Shown: piece by piece, positions 7,397 to 17,872 of the stretch | How positions within the stretch are numbered: the stretch's first letter is position 1 | How the letters are laid out: each line of letters opens with the position of its first letter | DNA from: a virus | Lineage: Duplodnaviria; Caudoviricetes | Reading direction: 5' to 3' (one strand) | Length of the DNA: 64,000 bases | IMG/VR virus record: IMGVR_UViG_3300037067_019009 | Location: 96,001 to 160,000 of that record | Program-made: the position numbers and the translations under genes | Notes under the pieces: generated by a model | Told to the model about the DNA's origin: nothing | The model's database searches: none | The model's input: the letters and a program-made list of their open reading frames with translations, nothing else

Positions 7397-7630
7397 AAGG
7401 TGGGAAGGTCTAAATGCTAGTACATAGCACTTCCTAATGGACCTCCCACCCCACTACAGCAGTGTAGTCTGCTGTCGACTGCAGTGTTTATGGTGCACAC
7501 TACCAAAACCGCCTCCATGTTTCGTCAGGAGGCCCATCGGTGATACGGCCATACAACCGTGACGCCATTTAGCTCGCGCCCTAGCCAGTTGCCTATATTA
7601 GGGTAAGGCAACATCTCAACTAGCCACTAC
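7397..7630. ncRNA. candidate structured non-coding element, several hairpins
   Basis: ORF-free; hairpins GGTGGGAAGGTC/GACCTCCCACC, ACAGCAG/CTGCTGT, GCCTCC/GGAGGC, TTGCCT/AGGCAA; directly 3' of tRNA-Thr on the minus strand. Confidence 0.35.
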
Positions 7631-7635
7631 TTATG

Positions 7636-7710
7636 TTATTCCCGCTTAGACTCGAACTAAGATCTTCCTCGTTACAAACGAGGGTGTTACCTACTTACAC
7701 CACGGGAATA
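7636..7710 (-). tRNA. tRNA-Thr(TGT), slightly irregular D/anticodon junction, no encoded CCA
   Basis: Acceptor TATTCCCG/CGGGAATA, D arm GTGT..ACAC, anticodon arm CCTCG-TTTGTAA-CGAGG, T arm CTTAG-TTCGAGT-CTAAG. Confidence 0.75.
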
Positions 7711-7746
7711 GCCTGCAGCTGACGTCTAAGCTGCATACCCCCAGTG

Positions 7747-8274
7747 CTATACAAGCAAAAGGGATTTGGTGAAGTTCCACTTATCAGTCGGAACCTCTTT
7801 AACATTTACAGAATCGTAGTCTAAAAGGATCTCTCCACCAGTGTAGAGATCCTTTACTCTATCTACCTTTGCTTTAGCCCTTTTAGAAAGCTCAATGGAG
7901 GAGAAGTAACCCGCTACATTATGCTCCCTAACTAAAACTTTGTCAAGCCTTTGGCCCCTCCACCTGTCGTGGAGAACGAAGTTTATCAAAGGTATGCCTT
8001 GAAAGCAGGCCCGACTCACCTGCTTTCTAGAGGAACAATCGAGAAGAACCACATTAAGTCCTCTGGCTATGCAGTACAGAAAATTATAATCCAGATCTTC
8101 TATAATCTGGCTCCATCTAGATTGCTCGCACAAGGTGGACTGAATACGTACACAACCCCTAGCTAACCCGGCTTTAGGATGAGACATGCCATGAAATAGA
8201 TTTACAAAATATATAGGCTTCGGTCGTATGGAAGTGAGGAATTCCTGAAACCTTTTATCTGAGGCTGTGGTCAC
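7747..8274 (-). CDS. hypothetical protein downstream of Ro60
   Basis: 175-aa ORF co-oriented with neighbours. Confidence 0.6.
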   Translation of the reverse strand: MTTASDKRFQEFLTSIRPKPIYFVNLFHGMSHPKAGLARGCVRIQSTLCEQSRWSQIIEDLDYNFLYCIARGLNVVLLDCSSRKQVSRACFQGIPLINFVLHDRWRGQRLDKVLVREHNVAGYFSSIELSKRAKAKVDRVKDLYTGGEILLDYDSVNVKEVPTDKWNFTKSLLLV

Positions 8275-8471
8275 TTTTTACCAAACTTTCCGCTAATCCT
8301 GCTTAGTATTTTATGAAGTCGCAACTTTGGTACAATCGTCCTGCACCACCACTTCACCGCATTGGATAGTCTAGAATTGTTATCTCTTTTTCCAATATTT
8401 AATTCACTCCTCCGGTACTATTTGAAGTTGGATTGAATATCCAATATATGGGGTTCAATCGAATGATCTAC

Positions 8472-10142
8472 TTATATGTTTCCCAAAGCGAATTGGGAAA
8501 TAAGATTTGGAGTAGCGGTATCAAACCCCACCAAATCTAGCATCCCAGAGTCATCCGGGTCTGCGATAGAGAACCCATTGCTTACCATCCCTACCACTAC
8601 GGATCTGGCGTTAGGGTTGATCTTCTTCCGGTACTCAGCGAGAGCCTGGGTGGGATGAATCTTTCCAGCCCAAGTCTCGCTATCCGTGTACACAACGAAT
8701 AAATCTATATTTAGATTGTTCTTTAATGCGTATAAAATAGGCAAAGAGCAATCTGTGCCACCGGCATCCAGTCCCTCTATATATTGGCATACGTCGCTTA
8801 TCCGTTGCTTACTACTGATATCAAGAGCAGAGACACTAGGAATACGACGATTAGTAGAGTCGGCTGTAAAACCTGTCACGACGACGTTCTTCTCAACAGC
8901 CTGGGTAACTAAAGCCATCGCAGCAGAACCAACTCTTGGAGTCAGTCCTGGGCAACCAGCAATGTTCACCCAAGTCATCGACGCAGATAAATCAAGAGCC
9001 AGCATTATATTTTTTCCGGTTGGCTCAACGTTTCCAAATGCAGTGTAGAATGCTCTATTGAGCGCGTCCACTACCTGTGTTACTGGCGTCCAGCTCCCAC
9101 TGCCCCTTACTCCCATCCCTGATCCGTATGTCAGAAGCGCCTTGAGTACATCTATAGGATGGACTCTACTCTTCCTGATCATCTCAACATCTGATAGCTT
9201 ATCTACCACGAAGTTGATAATGTCGAACTTCCCTGGAGCTAATAACCCACTCTTACTAAAGTTGCCCAGGTTCCTGAGTATTGCATGAAAAGGCATCTCC
9301 TGCAACAACTCCAGCTGCACATCCGGATCGCTCTTGAACTGAGAAGGTATGCACTCATGTGGAAGATTATAATCCTTAATTAAAGATATTATACCTTTCT
9401 TCCCGTCTTCAGTTTTAGCTTGCTCGAACGCGTAAATTATCTTAGCTGGAGTACCAGCAAACGTTTTTGCATCCAAGCCCTCGCGCACAACCCCGCGCTT
9501 CTTGTCTTCCCATCCATTAGTGCCATGTGTACACCACTGAAGGATGTTAGAGAAGAGATCGGAGTCCGCTTTAACATGAGATAGCCTGAGCAAATCTCTA
9601 TGGCTCCACCCATCACGCTGCTGGTACTTAGTAACTTGCAGTGACAAGGCACCGGCCGACTTACCTAAGTACCAATCCGCAACAGCGTTCTTCAGTAGGC
9701 GCCCCCATCCGCGAAGGTTAGTAACGTATTCAGCGAAGTGGAATAAGTGAGTTCCGATCCTGCAGACTTGGGGCAAAGCCGCAGCAGCTGCTTTCTTTGT
9801 TTCCACATCTCCAAAACTCATACACGCGGCGAGGGCGAAGATACAAGGGTCATTCTTTGGCGCTCGTCCAGCCTGAGAGATATCGACTATCTCTTTAACC
9901 AACTCGACGCCACTTGCCCTAATTACATTCTCCATAGCAGCAAAACTCTTCAGAGTCATATCTTTCTCTGTAGCATAATAGCTGCCACCCTCAGTGCCGA
10001 GGATCAAGAACCTCTTCACCTTCATCCACTCACTCACTTCGAATGAGTATCCCCCTGCCTGATTCTCCACCATCGACTTACCTGGAATAGGCTGGGTTTG
10101 CGGAGTTTTCTTTACAGACACATGCTTACTGTAGTTAGTCAT
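8472..10142 (-). CDS. rsr: Ro60/Rsr TROVE-domain RNA-binding protein with C-terminal vWA domain
   Basis: NQAGGYSF, RFLILGTEGGSYY, VCRIGTHLFHF, GWGR, KYQQRDGWSHRDLLRLSH, MIDAS DLSASM, GGTDCSLP, YTDSETW, GFD motifs. Confidence 0.95.
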   Translation of the reverse strand: MTNYSKHVSVKKTPQTQPIPGKSMVENQAGGYSFEVSEWMKVKRFLILGTEGGSYYATEKDMTLKSFAAMENVIRASGVELVKEIVDISQAGRAPKNDPCIFALAACMSFGDVETKKAAAAALPQVCRIGTHLFHFAEYVTNLRGWGRLLKNAVADWYLGKSAGALSLQVTKYQQRDGWSHRDLLRLSHVKADSDLFSNILQWCTHGTNGWEDKKRGVVREGLDAKTFAGTPAKIIYAFEQAKTEDGKKGIISLIKDYNLPHECIPSQFKSDPDVQLELLQEMPFHAILRNLGNFSKSGLLAPGKFDIINFVVDKLSDVEMIRKSRVHPIDVLKALLTYGSGMGVRGSGSWTPVTQVVDALNRAFYTAFGNVEPTGKNIMLALDLSASMTWVNIAGCPGLTPRVGSAAMALVTQAVEKNVVVTGFTADSTNRRIPSVSALDISSKQRISDVCQYIEGLDAGGTDCSLPILYALKNNLNIDLFVVYTDSETWAGKIHPTQALAEYRKKINPNARSVVVGMVSNGFSIADPDDSGMLDLVGFDTATPNLISQFALGNI

Positions 10143-10188
10143 TTGCTTTTGGTTCCTCTGGTCCTAGTCAGGACAAATCATTTGTAGT

Positions 10189-10325
10189 TGGGTGGTGGTG
10201 GGACTCGAACCCACACGTCCTTTCGGACAGCTGTTGCTGATAACCCTAACTGTCGGCTCTTAATAGAGAGCTAGTATTCGCTAGGATGTATATACGGCCG
10301 CGTCTGCCATTACGCCACACCACCC
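10189..10325 (-). ncRNA. tRNA-Leu-like body carrying a circularly permuted Y-RNA (Ro-binding) module in place of the anticodon loop
   Basis: Acceptor GGTGGTG/CACCACC, D arm GCG-TAATGGCAGA-CGC, long variable arm GTCC-GAAA-GGAC, T arm GTGGG-TTCGAGT-CCCAC; 59-nt insert (10235-10293) with CCTAGC..GCTCT-CTATTA-AGAGCCGA..GTTAGG-GTTATC. Confidence 0.8.
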
Positions 10326-10350
10326 GTATTTGAAACACGGATACATATAG

Positions 10351-10426
10351 AATATGCTGAGCAAGTAAGATAGCTATGGGGGTGATCATTGGCAGTGATA
10401 ACCATAGCCAATCGGCTCAGCATATT
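10351..10426 (-). ncRNA. Y RNA-like (copy 3 in transcription order)
   Basis: Lower stem GCTGAGC-(bulged C)-GA / TTGCTCAGC, upper stem TGGCTATGG/CCATAGCTA, GGTTATC motif. Confidence 0.85.
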
Positions 10427-10437
10427 ACTAATAGTTC

Positions 10438-10500
10438 TGCCGGACAAGTAGATTGGTGACGATGTTGTCCTTATGATAACCGTCACCATTCGGCCCGGCA
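10438..10500 (-). ncRNA. Y RNA-like (copy 2)
   Basis: Lower stem TGCCGGGC-(C)-GA / TTGTCCGGCA, upper stem TGGTGACGGT/ATCGTCACCA, GGTTATC motif. Confidence 0.85.
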
Positions 10501-10506
10501 CATATC

Positions 10507-10579
10507 TTCCACCGAACAAACAAATTGGTCATGGAGCGATCAGTACAAGTGATAACCATGACCTAACGGCTCGGCGGAA
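10507..10579 (-). ncRNA. Y RNA-like (copy 1)
   Basis: Lower stem TTCCGCCGAGC-(C)-G / TGTTCGGTGGAA, upper stem GGTCATGG/CCATGACC, GGTTATC motif. Confidence 0.8.
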
Positions 10580-10590
10580 CAACCTAAACA

Positions 10591-10619
10591 ATTATATGTT
10601 ATTTATGTTTACTTGTCAA
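10591..10619 (-). promoter_or_regulatory. consensus sigma70 promoter for the Y-RNA array and Ro60
   Basis: TTGACA-17 bp-TATAAT on the minus strand, just upstream of the first Y-like hairpin. Confidence 0.9.
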
Positions 10620-10635
10620 GAGCGATTTATTTATG

Positions 10636-10912
10636 ATTTGGTAGTGGGCTGGATTCCCCACTCAGCTCCTACACAGCTTTTTCGACATCTCACTAGAGTT
10701 ATACTCACTAGATTATAATCCCAGCACAATGCCTCTCACGAACTTCGATACTGTATTAGTGATATACAGTTACGTTCTCCGCTGCACTTTTTGCGGCAGG
10801 TAATAGGGATACTTTTGGGCTCTTCACTCAAGAGGCAGGCCCAGTGTATCTAATACCCCATCTCCGACACCATTCTGCCTTACCTAGCGCTGCCACGCTA
10901 CCACTACCAAAT
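10636..10912 (-). ncRNA. candidate ~277-nt structured ncRNA
   Basis: 12-bp terminal inverted repeat ATTTGGTAGTGG/CCACTACCAAAT enclosing several hairpins (TAGCG..CGCTA, ACTGTAT..ATACAGT, GGGC..GCCC); no convincing ORF. Confidence 0.5.
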
Positions 10913-10990
10913 ACTTATAAACTGGCTCATAGCGCCTTTCTTTACCTGCACCATCTAGGTATAGATCGGTTACACATGTAACCGCTTATC

Positions 10991-11311
10991 TTATTCAGGT
11001 GGAAAATCCATGTCATTCATCTGCTCGACGGTCCATCCAGGCTCCAAAAGTATTTTTTTGGAGTCCCGATCATTTTGTGGGGGAATTATAAGCAGCCTTC
11101 TGCCACCAGACTGAACAATATTTATTGTTTTCCTCGAAATAGTGTGCAACTGATACAGTATCTTACCCTGTTCATCACGCACTATGGTATACTCATCCGG
11201 GTAAACACTAAAGTGCATTTTATTAAAAAGCATCGTTCGAGAGACTACTAACACACCTATCGAAAAGGCAACTAACCCAATCACACTCATCACTTTAATT
11301 ATAGTCTGCAC
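10991..11311 (-). CDS. hypothetical membrane-anchored protein
   Basis: N-terminal TM helix, GAGG RBS. Confidence 0.6.
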   Translation of the reverse strand: MQTIIKVMSVIGLVAFSIGVLVVSRTMLFNKMHFSVYPDEYTIVRDEQGKILYQLHTISRKTINIVQSGGRRLLIIPPQNDRDSKKILLEPGWTVEQMNDMDFPPE

Positions 11312-11368
11312 AACCTCATCCTCCTAACTTCGTATATTAGATAATACCTGCACCCCGCAAAGGTAAAA

Positions 11369-11581
11369 TTACTGCCGTATGCAGCCCTGCCAGTAAGCCT
11401 GCCCAGAAAACGCCACCACTGCGCTTACAGCGAGCAGCGTGCATAAAACTACCACAATTATATCTATTATCATGCACGCAAAAAGCCTCTTCTTTATATC
11501 CCTATACACTTCTCTGGAACTGTGGATAAAGCCTAAAACAGGAAGCATTACCATTGCCACATGTATCCAAACAATAGCCAA
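11369..11581 (-). CDS. small 2-TM hypothetical protein
   Basis: Two hydrophobic segments; AGGAGG RBS. Confidence 0.5.
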   Translation of the reverse strand: MAIVWIHVAMVMLPVLGFIHSSREVYRDIKKRLFACMIIDIIVVVLCTLLAVSAVVAFSGQAYWQGCIRQ

Positions 11582-11583
11582 TC

Positions 11584-12027
11584 TTACTTCCTCCTTCCTT
11601 CAAGAAAACTATTCGAGAGATATGGATTCTTATTTAACCAAGCTTTTAACCTTATTATAGAGTGTGTACTGAGCTTCACACCAAATTCACTATGGCCATA
11701 GACATCTATGAAGCTCGTGTACCAGTCACTACCTAACCTGCTAAACCGCAAACGATTGTTGTTGGCATCCTTGATTTCCACATATGACACCTCACTATCT
11801 ACCTGCGTTTCAGTACCCTCCATTGCGTTATGCTCTCTCGAAATCTCCCCAGCCAGGTTTCTATTACTAGCTCTTGGCCGGGAAATTACTATGAGATAAA
11901 TCCACCAGTTAGCAATCAGAGCCAGCAAAAGCACCACTCTGAGAGTATTACTATCCGCATCACTGAGAGTCCCGAGAAGAACCGTAGAGGATAAGAACAT
12001 GAATGCCGTTACTATATATTTAAACAT
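11584..12027 (-). CDS. hypothetical membrane protein
   Basis: Two N-terminal TM helices. Confidence 0.6.
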   Translation of the reverse strand: MFKYIVTAFMFLSSTVLLGTLSDADSNTLRVVLLLALIANWWIYLIVISRPRASNRNLAGEISREHNAMEGTETQVDSEVSYVEIKDANNNRLRFSRLGSDWYTSFIDVYGHSEFGVKLSTHSIIRLKAWLNKNPYLSNSFLEGRRK

Positions 12028-15141: not shown

Positions 15142-15218
15142 CTAGGAAACAAAGTGGGAACTGAAGAGAGTTGTAGCACGGATCATCGATTCCAAAGGAG
15201 ATCTACCCTCTGGAATAG

Positions 15219-15295
15219 TCGGCGGGTAAGGATTTGAACCCCAGTCCTCCTACTAGTACATTACTGTAGACACTCTACCACTGAGCTACCCGCCG
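15219..15295 (-). tRNA. tRNA-like RNA with 12-nt anticodon loop (no assignable anticodon)
   Basis: CGGCGGG/CCCGCCG acceptor, TAGCTCAGTGGTAGAGT D arm, TCTAC-AGTAATGTACTA-GTAGG, TGGGG-TTCAAAT-CCTTA T arm. Confidence 0.75.
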
Positions 15296-16177: not shown

Positions 16178-16813
16178 GGTTGTGCCCCTCAGCGAGTTAT
16201 ATAATTATACGTACACGCTCTAGTTATAGAATAAGTATTGTAGATTTTGTCCTGCTACACGACATATACAGTGATGTCATCCGAATGCTGCCCCGCTGCT
16301 GCTGGTCGTTGACTACAAAAGTAGTAGGATATCCTCCCACAACTCATCAGCATCTAGTTCCCCTGTGTTCGGTTGACAGGACAAATATAAAGACAAGACA
16401 ACAAGCTATCTTGAAGGATATATTCTCGGGAGTTACATGCAAAGTAAACCCAATCCTCAACATGCTTACCCACAGGGGTGTTTCCATATTGGGAATGTCA
16501 AGATAACTACTCTACCCACAACCTTGCTCTACTGCCTTGCCTATTGATCCACCAGGAGATCATCCCTTGCAGTATCAATCTCTACTACTAGGCTACTAGA
16601 CCATTATTCTGCCACCGCAGAAAAATTAGCAATAAATAGAACAAAGACGACCAGTAGAATCTCACTGGTACCATAGTTTCCATCACAGGCGGTGGTAATA
16701 CAAGCTATAGCGGAGCCAAGGGCTCCTACTAAATCTATAATAGCAACAACTGATTTCATAACATCATACCTTCCATTCATCTAATAGAATAGACTAGCTA
16801 TAAATATAAGCCA

Positions 16814-16906
16814 TCAGCGGGGAAGGACTCGAACCCCCGACCTTGCACATGTTACAGTGCTTTCTCCTTAAATAGGAGTCGCTCTACCAACTGAGCTACC
16901 CGCTGA
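16814..16906 (-). tRNA. tRNA-like RNA with two hairpins in place of the anticodon arm
   Basis: CAGCGGG/CCCGCTG acceptor, TAGCTCAGTTGGTAGAGC D arm, hairpins CTCCT-ATTTA-AGGAG and GCAC-TGTAACAT-GTGC, then AGGTC GGGGG-TTCGAGT-CCTTC T arm. Confidence 0.75.
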
Positions 16907-17605: not shown

Positions 17606-17644
17606 GCACTTACCCCACTTGTAGATACGCTCGCAAAAGAAGAT

Positions 17645-17872
17645 TCAGCCGGGTAGGGATTTGAACCCTCGACCTCCCGCACGTAAGTAAGATTACATAG
17701 CTATTAACTTTTTCTCAGGACATGTTGTGCGTTGGCGCCTATGGCACTCAGTACCATGCCGCTTACAAGCAGCATATATTGTCGATACTCGCAAGTTAGT
17801 TATGTTCTCTCTGCTCATGGATGTTAACCCCACATGAACAACAGGCGCTCTGTCCGCTGAGCTACCGGCTGA
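17645..17872 (-). tRNA. tRNA body with 160-nt structured insertion in the anticodon loop (possible intron-containing tRNA-Val(TAC))
   Basis: CAGCCGG/CCGGCTG acceptor, TAGCTCAGCGGACAGAGC D arm, stem CCTGT/GCGGG enclosing 17681-17840, whose 3' end reads CTTACGT; GAGGG-TTCAAAT-CCCT T arm. Confidence 0.75.

Follow-up and report, generated by a model that had tools for sequence, protein, structure and literature searches.

The closest described relative of the RNA gene discussed here is YrlA (RF02553), which binds Rsr, the bacterial Ro60 protein, and whose tRNA-like domain is modified by tRNA enzymes (PMC4201824). In YrlA the T arm comes before the D arm, and both ends of the RNA lie in the Ro helix (PMC4201824; bioRxiv 10.1101/312249). 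The YrlA of Mycobacterium smegmatis is cleaved by RNase P and receives CCA (PMC4201824), and it comes from one precursor together with YrlB, by processing. Here we describe a 137-nt RNA gene on the minus strand (10189-10325, read from 10325 to 10189) of a 64,000-nt stretch of DNA, hereafter the window, taken from IMGVR_UViG_3300037067_019009, a 212,668-bp IMG/VR virus record that is 84% complete. The gene lies 46 nt upstream of rsr, the gene for the phage Ro60, and its parts follow one another as acceptor, D, Y, V, T, acceptor. From sequence and comparison we think it probable that this element is a Y RNA partner for the phage Ro60 (Rsr), a member of the YrlA lineage that is wired in tRNA order and is not a decoding tRNA.

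Like YrlA, the element stands beside rsr on the same strand and has a Ro-binding helix with a G-N-CGA motif and the sequence GGUUAUC, together with D and T arms and a V element. In both RNAs the anticodon side of the tRNA-like body is where the Ro helix sits. The two differ in where the chain begins and ends: YrlA has its ends in the Ro helix, T before D and an acceptor stem closed by a loop, whereas the element ends in an open 8-bp acceptor stem, has D before T, and has a loop closing its Ro helix. YrlA shares a GUAGCUCA..GAGC D arm and a GGUUCGAnUCC T arm with most members of the family described below; the element, unlike most YrlAs, has a D arm of the tRNA-Leu type and a long variable arm. 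Once cleaved, the M. smegmatis YrlA has an opened acceptor stem of 7 bp and a CCA tail while Ro60 binds its tRNA-like body, a state like the one predicted for the element, but it consists of two pieces held by pairing and keeps its free ends in the Ro helix, whereas in the element one continuous chain would have both the opened acceptor and the CCA tail.

Yrn1 of D. radiodurans is a third known wiring. This Y RNA, which Ro60 binds, has a D-like element before its T arm, in tRNA order as in the element, but its Ro helix is in the acceptor position and a loop-closed arm is in the anticodon position, an arrangement that the element reverses. Simple Y RNAs (YrlB; Yrl1 and Yrl2 of Thermus phage phiLo, PMC12135203) consist of the stem-bulge-stem Ro module with its CGA(A) motif and have no tRNA body, and Yrl1 and Yrl2 lie upstream of the phage Ro60 gene, as do three hairpins of the same kind at 10348-10579 in the window. 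Red algae and archaea have circularly permuted tRNA genes (cited in Wang et al. 2018), which show that tRNA-shaped RNAs occur in both circular permutations; unlike the element, they are precursors of decoding tRNAs with a circular intermediate and no Ro module. Lak and other huge phages have tRNA genes with 'enigmatic introns' (Devoto et al. 2019, PMC6784885), which, like the element's insert, occupy the anticodon region of phage tRNA genes and are missed by standard bacterial tRNA finders. Those introns have no known identity or link to Ro60, whereas the insert discussed here is identifiable as the Ro-binding module of a Y RNA. Neither a full-text literature search nor the key papers on YrlA gave a description of a Y RNA topology in tRNA order, though the 2018 and 2020 Wolin-lab reviews may possibly mention it.

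Anatomy of the element and its locus

At 10189-10325 default ARAGORN reports nothing, and Rfam scans, one at the gathering cut-off and one of 9000-12000 at E<=10, are likewise empty at the element, including for RF00005 and RF02553. With introns allowed (-i), a search that the sequence-only reading had proposed, ARAGORN calls a tRNA at exactly c[10189,10325]. Its label for that call, tRNA-Thr(ggt) with a 46-nt intron, is an arbitrary parse that we rejected. The parts of the element, in the order in which the RNA is read, are as follows, with pairing probabilities from the fold.

10189-10325, minus strand: whole tRNA-order Y RNA (ARAGORN -i; covariance models R1, 78.3 bits, and R2, 62.7 bits; fold)
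10318-10325, minus strand: 5' strand of the acceptor stem, 8 nt, its first G paired with position 73 (fold, alignment)
10300-10315, minus strand: D arm of the tRNA-Leu type, 3-bp stem GCG/CGC, loop UAAUGGCAGA (alignments with phage tRNA-Leu genes and Leu-type relatives)
10235-10293, minus strand: permuted Y module, 59 nt, between the strands of the anticodon stem, RNA positions 33-91 (sequence, fold)
10280-10287, minus strand: upper Y helix (S2), the 3' strand of ordinary Y RNAs, pairing with 10243-10250 (probability 0.95)
10253-10271, minus strand: Ro-site hairpin GCUCU-CUAUUA-AGAGC (S1, probability 0.98), then the bulged C and GA
10239-10250, minus strand: 5' strand of the upper Y helix with the conserved GGUUAUC motif (sequence motif)
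10217-10228, minus strand: long variable arm GUCC-GAAA-GGAC, class II and Leu-like (probability 0.94)
10198-10214, minus strand: T arm GUGGG-UUCGAGU-CCCAC, RNA positions 112-128 (probability 0.93)
10189-10197, minus strand: 3' strand of the acceptor stem, 8 nt, and an unpaired A (sequence)

The acceptor, D and T arms, together with the long Leu-type variable arm (RNA positions 98-109), make up the cloverleaf of a tRNA-Leu, and window positions 10197-10229 are matched by genuine tRNA-Leu genes that other organisms contribute to the same metagenomes. The acceptor helix is open and 8 bp long (GGGUGGUG/CACCACCC, RNA positions 1-8/129-136, followed by A137; pair probability 0.97). The D arm (RNA positions 11-26) has a pair probability of 0.31 in the partition function. 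A normal 7-nt anticodon loop on a 5-bp stem is not present, the stem strands GCCGU/ACAGC (RNA positions 28-32/92-96, window 10294-10298 and 10230-10234) being separated by the 59-nt insert. This insert reads CCUAGC (a strand of the upper helix), GCUCU-CUAUUA-AGAGC, the bulged C, G-A, GUUAGG (the partner of the first strand) and GUUAUC, so that the lower Y helix (S1) is closed by the hexaloop CUAUUA. Intact acceptor, D, long variable and T arms, and an insert that runs from the Y 3' strand through a CTATTA cap to the Y 5' strand, were what the sequence-only reading had described; given the fold probabilities and the motif matches shared at the locus, that description is accurate. It had been meant to fall if the insert did not fold into a Ro helix, and both S1 and S2 form in the fold, as listed above.

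The window contains GCCG-N8-9-GGTTATCA at four places, the three upstream hairpins and the insert, where 0.01 occurrences would be expected, and for this reason, and because of the independent match to model R2 described below, the likeness of the insert to a Y module is not due to chance. All four Y modules also have the GGUUAUCA motif in common. The Ro-binding motif defined by Chen et al. 2014 (PMC4201824), GNCGAAN0-1G, reads GCCGACAG in the element, with one departure (C replacing the second A).

Around the element the locus is laid out as a single unit.

10591-10619, minus strand: sigma-70 consensus promoter TTGACA-17-TATAAT, the sole 12/12 match within 7600-11000
10507-10579, minus strand: simple Y hairpin 1, with lower stem, GAGC-C-G motif, upper stem and GGUUAUCA loop (fold, motif)
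10436-10502, minus strand: simple Y hairpin 2, with GGGC-C-GAAUG, an exact GNCGAAN0-1G motif (fold, motif)
10348-10430, minus strand: simple Y hairpin 3 (fold, motif)
8472-10142, minus strand: Ro60/Rsr orthologue, 556 amino acids, 46 nt downstream of the RNA gene

The Rsr protein matches the Pfam families TROVE (1e-38) and vWA_Ro60 (1e-54) and PHROG 850, and its matches in the PDB are 9nen (RO60, 1.7e-123), 1yvp (Xenopus Ro, 2.5e-118) and 2nvo (D. radiodurans Rsr, 4.6e-114). No terminator-like site was found between the promoter and rsr. The three simple hairpins (63-83 nt) each have a lower stem, a bulged C, an upper stem and GGUUAUCA at the edge of the loop; they carry the Y module in the ordinary strand order, none has a tRNA-like domain, and the stretch that contains them (10326-10600, minus strand) folds with z = -5.6. 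The element is thus the sole Y RNA with a tRNA-like domain at its locus, in the slot that YrlA holds elsewhere. The open reading frames adjoining the locus obtained no function from PHROGs or Pfam.

Of the sequencing runs listed for this DNA none is of RNA, and the contigs of the two metagenomic DNA runs show no variant inside the element, those of the landfill run ending within it. A second type of contig, in runs X1 and X2 (groundwater and landfill metagenomes), matches the element at 10198-10240, from its 3' region up to and including the anticodon-stem strand, and then diverges into a different sequence containing GGGTTAC; it is probably a related Leu-type tRNA-order Y RNA from another phage or bacterium. 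Three more tRNA-like genes with altered anticodon regions lie elsewhere in the window on the minus strand (15218-15295, 16813-16906 and 17644-17872). The alterations consist of a loop of 12 nt, 20 nt inserted into the variable region and, as called by ARAGORN -i, an 'intron' of 135 nt; the three genes have acceptor and D-arm sequences in common, and the Y motif is in none of them.

A family in tRNA order and its tie to YrlA

The element is not singular: sequence and covariance-model matches place it in a large family whose members occur in phages and in bacteria of four phyla. Relatives of Rsr (33-50% identical) were taken from 80 viral contigs, giving 72 distinct related contigs, and in many of these ARAGORN -i calls tRNA-plus-insert genes directly upstream of rsr. 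A covariance model, R1, was made from 15 aligned sequences (A1) with the window sequence in the seed, and holds 26 pairs, of which 7 are in the acceptor, 4 in the D arm, 6 in the upper and 4 in the lower Y helix, and 5 in the T arm. It gives 20 matches above 54 bits in 13 loci, the window and 12 of the 72 related phage contigs; ordinary tRNAs reach 30-50 bits under it. From a scan of bacterial genomes with the Rsr alignment we took a sample of 80 rsr loci, mainly in metagenome-assembled genomes and mainly of Chloroflexota, Armatimonadota, Myxococcota and Verrucomicrobiota, and in 43 of these R1 found a total of 80 matches (E<=1e-10), many of them tandem copies that lie within tRNA arrays. The search of other Ro60 loci for the same topology, which the sequence-only reading had called for, has thus found it in both sets. 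RF00005 spans many class I relatives, though not the element. Since the window sequence sat in the seed of R1, we built a second model, R2, seeded by the 80 bacterial sequences only, and it matches 10189-10324 (minus strand) over its full length with E=2.6e-13 and zero non-standard pairs.

Covariation extends to every helix, the long-range acceptor stem included, with double-sided changes in 25 of the 26 pairs. In the realigned phage set (n=20) 95.2% of cells are paired, against 38-50% when the partners are slid; in the bacterial set (n=80) the value is 96.2%, and slid controls overall give 38-53%. The acceptor stem is paired in 100% of cells in the 20 phage sequences and 99.1% in the 80 bacterial ones, with compensatory changes at 7/7 modelled pairs; S2 covaries at 6/6 pairs, and S1 is 96-98% paired across the two sets. 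MAFFT with RNAalifold alone missed the upper Y helix because its register shifts, and realignment to the covariance model was required. In tandem bacterial copies the acceptor sequences differ and pair inside units, not across them, and therefore the reading with an open acceptor holds in arrays also.

Among the features that the members share, GGUUAUC or GGUUACC occurs in 72 of 100 and the class I D arm UAGCUC in 78 of 100. The Ro-site consensus in the alignment is YUUG-YCC..GGR-C-CGR. The vertebrate Y RNA Ro site is UUGACC facing GGUC-C-GA, with a bulged C, and we take the family consensus to be that site with its strand order reversed. A -1:73 pair that lengthens the acceptor helix to 8 bp is found in 18 of 21 phage and 61 of 80 bacterial members, where chance would give 37.5%, and CCA is encoded within 5 nt past the helix in 6/21 and 17/80, respectively, where about 5% would be expected. 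CCA addition, which the earlier reading had considered possible, is plausible in view of these encoded tails. In most members the stretch from GGUUAUC to the T arm contains a hairpin of 3-4 bp whose loop is CUNNNAA, and AGGUC comes next; this hairpin is a relic anticodon hairpin, the counterpart of the YrlA 'V' arm. A Leu-type minority (the element, L051:2603-2757, L112:2260-2398 and L129:1421-1540; L numbers are our labels for loci) instead has the Y arm inside a 4-5-bp anticodon stem with a class II variable arm next to it. The anticodon stems of this group differ in sequence and are still paired in three of the four members, and the subfamily, which extends to another phage and to bacteria, has compensatory changes in the anticodon stem and the V arm, the V arms of the Leu-type relatives being paired in spite of their differing sequences.

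Classic YrlA occurs in other related loci, such as L029, L079, Gordonia phage Cashline and prophiGD43A-5, and these phage YrlAs share the GGUUAUC and ..CUUG motifs and the D and T arm sequences with the tRNA-order family. When 14 of them were cut in the acceptor loop, joined at their ends in silico and compared with the family profile, they aligned end to end (up to 49.5 bits, from profile position 3 or 4 to 122 or 124); unpermuted, they aligned as two pieces in swapped order, and shuffled versions gave no match. YrlA and the tRNA-order family are therefore true circular permutations of each other, and this alignment, with the covariation, bears out the earlier suggestion that the element inverts the YrlA topology, its Ro helix loop-closed and its acceptor open. 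RF02553, which gives no match around the element at E<=10, does pick up classic forms (L087, L029, L089, L090), at 29-42 bits, below threshold. On the sequence comparison we regard the element as a YrlA homologue of different topology, which falls outside YrlA as currently defined because, despite the homology, it lacks the wiring that defines YrlA.

The eight cultured Ro60 phages sampled (Cashline, Boopy, prophiGD43A-5, Bxz1, Beuffert, Zooman, Atu_ph07 and SM23) yielded no clear tRNA-order member, only classic or doubtful forms. Covariance-model matches with truncated acceptor stems in Cashline and prophiGD43A-5 were rejected as tandem classic YrlAs. An ARAGORN -i match at L029 2277-2430 is a false positive made up of a simple Y hairpin and, after it, a classic YrlA. 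In Mycobacterium phage prophiGD43A-5 (MW584167; L089:1732-1810) the 5' half of a classic YrlA is annotated in GenBank as 'tRNA-Thr (tgt)', likely a mis-annotation: its V hairpin, with the loop CUUGUAA, was taken by the annotator as the anticodon arm of a tRNA-Thr. In Agrobacterium phage Atu_ph07 (MF403008; L093:2480-4135) the Ro60 orthologue, which aligns with 93% of the query at 39% identity, bears the annotation 'Clp protease-like protein'.

Some related loci deserve mention in their own right. At L002:2440-3000 five Y-type RNAs stand in series before rsr. The first is a simple hairpin and the second a tRNA-order Y RNA that encodes CCA; then come one that has just a T-arm-like hairpin and two further simple hairpins. 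The L076 locus has four or five tandem tRNA-order Y RNAs, and its Rsr match (L076:3001-4591) contains 5 in-frame stops under table 11, for which a frameshift, an assembly error and another genetic code are candidates. Near the Ro60 loci of two phage contigs are tRNAs with the amber-reading anticodon CUA (L029:2108-2206 and L039:1649-1746), a long hairpin in the variable region and encoded CCA, sequences that hint at stop-codon reassignment or suppression in these phages. A group I intron (L025:6586-6803, 89 bits) and a tmRNA gene (L058:699-1129, 55 bits) lie near Ro60 genes of large phage contigs.

Weighing the readings of the element

The most likely reading, as judged from the gene and its relatives, is a Ro60-bound Y RNA that matures like a tRNA. 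We favor a partnership with Rsr because the RNA lies on the same strand just upstream of rsr under one 12/12 promoter with no terminator between, and because of its Y motif, shared with the neighboring hairpins, the high pair probabilities of its acceptor, S1, S2, V and T helices (0.93-0.98), its family, the covariation, the match to R2, the homology to YrlA by permutation and what is reported of YrlA itself, its binding to Rsr and its processing; tRNA-like ends are expected because the encoded CCA and the conserved -1:73 pair both exceed chance. Judging by the layout, one transcript from the promoter at 10619-10591 would contain this RNA, the three simple Y hairpins and rsr. Its tRNA-Leu-type body with the open 8-bp acceptor helix would be recognized at the 5' end by host RNase P, and 3' trimming and CCA addition would also fall to the host. 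The hairpin that replaces the anticodon loop would then show the Ro60-binding site to Rsr, as its identity with the neighboring and known Y modules suggests, the predicted site consisting of a short helix below, the bulged C with its G-A step, and above them a second helix that has GGUUAUC at its end. The tRNA-shaped body might serve as a nuclease-resistant handle through which the Ro60 particle meets a tRNA-binding factor, as has been proposed for YrlA.

Several observations weigh against this reading. The element has no encoded CCA, the bases after the unpaired A being ACU, and an 8-bp acceptor helix is unusual among RNase P substrates. The anticodon stem contains a C.A mismatch and is thermodynamically weak (pair probability 0.02). 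The putative Ro site may be weaker than consensus, because it has CGAC in place of CGAA and UA in place of UU facing the G-A step, and Ro60 would have to accept a helix that a loop seals only 5 bp below the bulge. Neither RtcB nor a CCA-adding enzyme was found in the phage record (213 kb, 84% complete). The covariation was counted on model-fitted alignments, which are biased towards structure, although the slid controls and the independent model R2 limit this concern. Finally, the element and all members of the family are known here as genes.

One might instead take the element for a working tRNA-Leu interrupted by an excisable insert, so that cutting and re-joining would release a free small Y module and leave a decoding tRNA-Leu(CAG). 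The scaffold is unmistakably tRNA-Leu-like and matches real tRNA-Leu genes, other tRNA-like genes in the window carry inserts, tRNAs with 'enigmatic introns' are recorded in large phages (PMC6784885), and the final 7 nt of the insert are AUCAGCA, in which the sequence-only reading saw a Leu anticodon, CAG, in register. That heptamer is literally there, but its AUCA falls within GGUUAUCA, a motif that each of the four Y modules has, and the heptamer has no counterpart in register in the other Leu-type members, so that this part of the earlier reading is not supported. Position 37 would be C. At 59 nt the insert is far below group I intron size and matches no intron family at E<=10, and no RNA ligase (RtcB) was found in the phage record, 84% complete. 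About 100 relatives, moreover, keep the insert next to rsr as a Ro-binding module, and most of them carry the Y module adjoining, not inside, the relic anticodon hairpin. Taken together, these points make excision very improbable.

The tRNA-like signal could also act as punctuation, drawing RNase P and 3' nucleases so as to sever the Y-RNA array from the rsr mRNA, with Ro60 binding secondary. The element does lie just where the last simple Y hairpin gives way to the ribosome-binding site of rsr, with one promoter heading the whole unit, bacterial relatives are embedded in tRNA arrays, and there is the precedent of the processed YrlA-YrlB precursor of M. smegmatis; but an ordinary tRNA would suffice for this role, which has no need of a conserved, covarying Ro-binding helix with GGUUAUC inside the tRNA, and many loci have several tandem copies. 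We consider punctuation as the main role quite unlikely. Least probable of all, in our view, is a dead tRNA-Leu gene struck by a copy of a neighboring Y hairpin and having no function of its own. Such an accident would fit the failure of both the tRNA and YrlA models of Rfam on the element, the mismatch in its anticodon stem and the two deviations in its Ro site. Against it, every other helix is intact, the bacterial-only model R2 matches without a broken pair, the Leu-type subfamily shows compensatory changes in both its anticodon stem and its V arm, and the element alone fills the slot that YrlA fills elsewhere.

Meaning for Ro60 RNAs in bacteria and phages

The Y RNAs with a tRNA domain known so far are 'inside-out' tRNAs with a sealed acceptor stem, a feature that argued against charging and shaped the model of their origin from dimeric tRNA transcripts. 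The tRNA-order family contains the same modules in normal tRNA order, with free acceptor ends and often with encoded CCA, and among the loci sampled from Chloroflexota, Armatimonadota, Myxococcota and Verrucomicrobiota it is the usual form; large phages have it as well. Few YrlAs were found in delta-proteobacteria by Chen et al. (PMC4201824), and the tRNA-order family may explain bacteria without a strong YrlA. Tandem tRNA-order copies offer a simple route between the two wirings, and the idea that the tRNA-order form was an evolutionary intermediate is attractive because such copies contain the YrlA order.

A bolder reading, speculative and to our minds rather unlikely, would have the whole family consist of single-chain, CCA-ended tRNA mimics that are aminoacylated on Ro60 (the element by LeuRS, copies with G-1:C73 perhaps by HisRS), so that the charged tRNA body would carry Ro60 to EF-Tu, to ribosomes or to defence nucleases that target tRNAs, and would in addition make the tRNA-order form the ancestor of YrlA via tandem duplication.

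An old question becomes testable with this family, namely whether an RNA bound to Ro60 is processed, CCA-tailed and perhaps aminoacylated as a tRNA. A phage Ro60 system has been linked to the capture of host PNPase (PMC12135203), and a phage Ro60-like protein has been reported to counter the Ppl defence system (preprint, PMC11482910); in phages, the family bears on how Ro60 particles act during infection.
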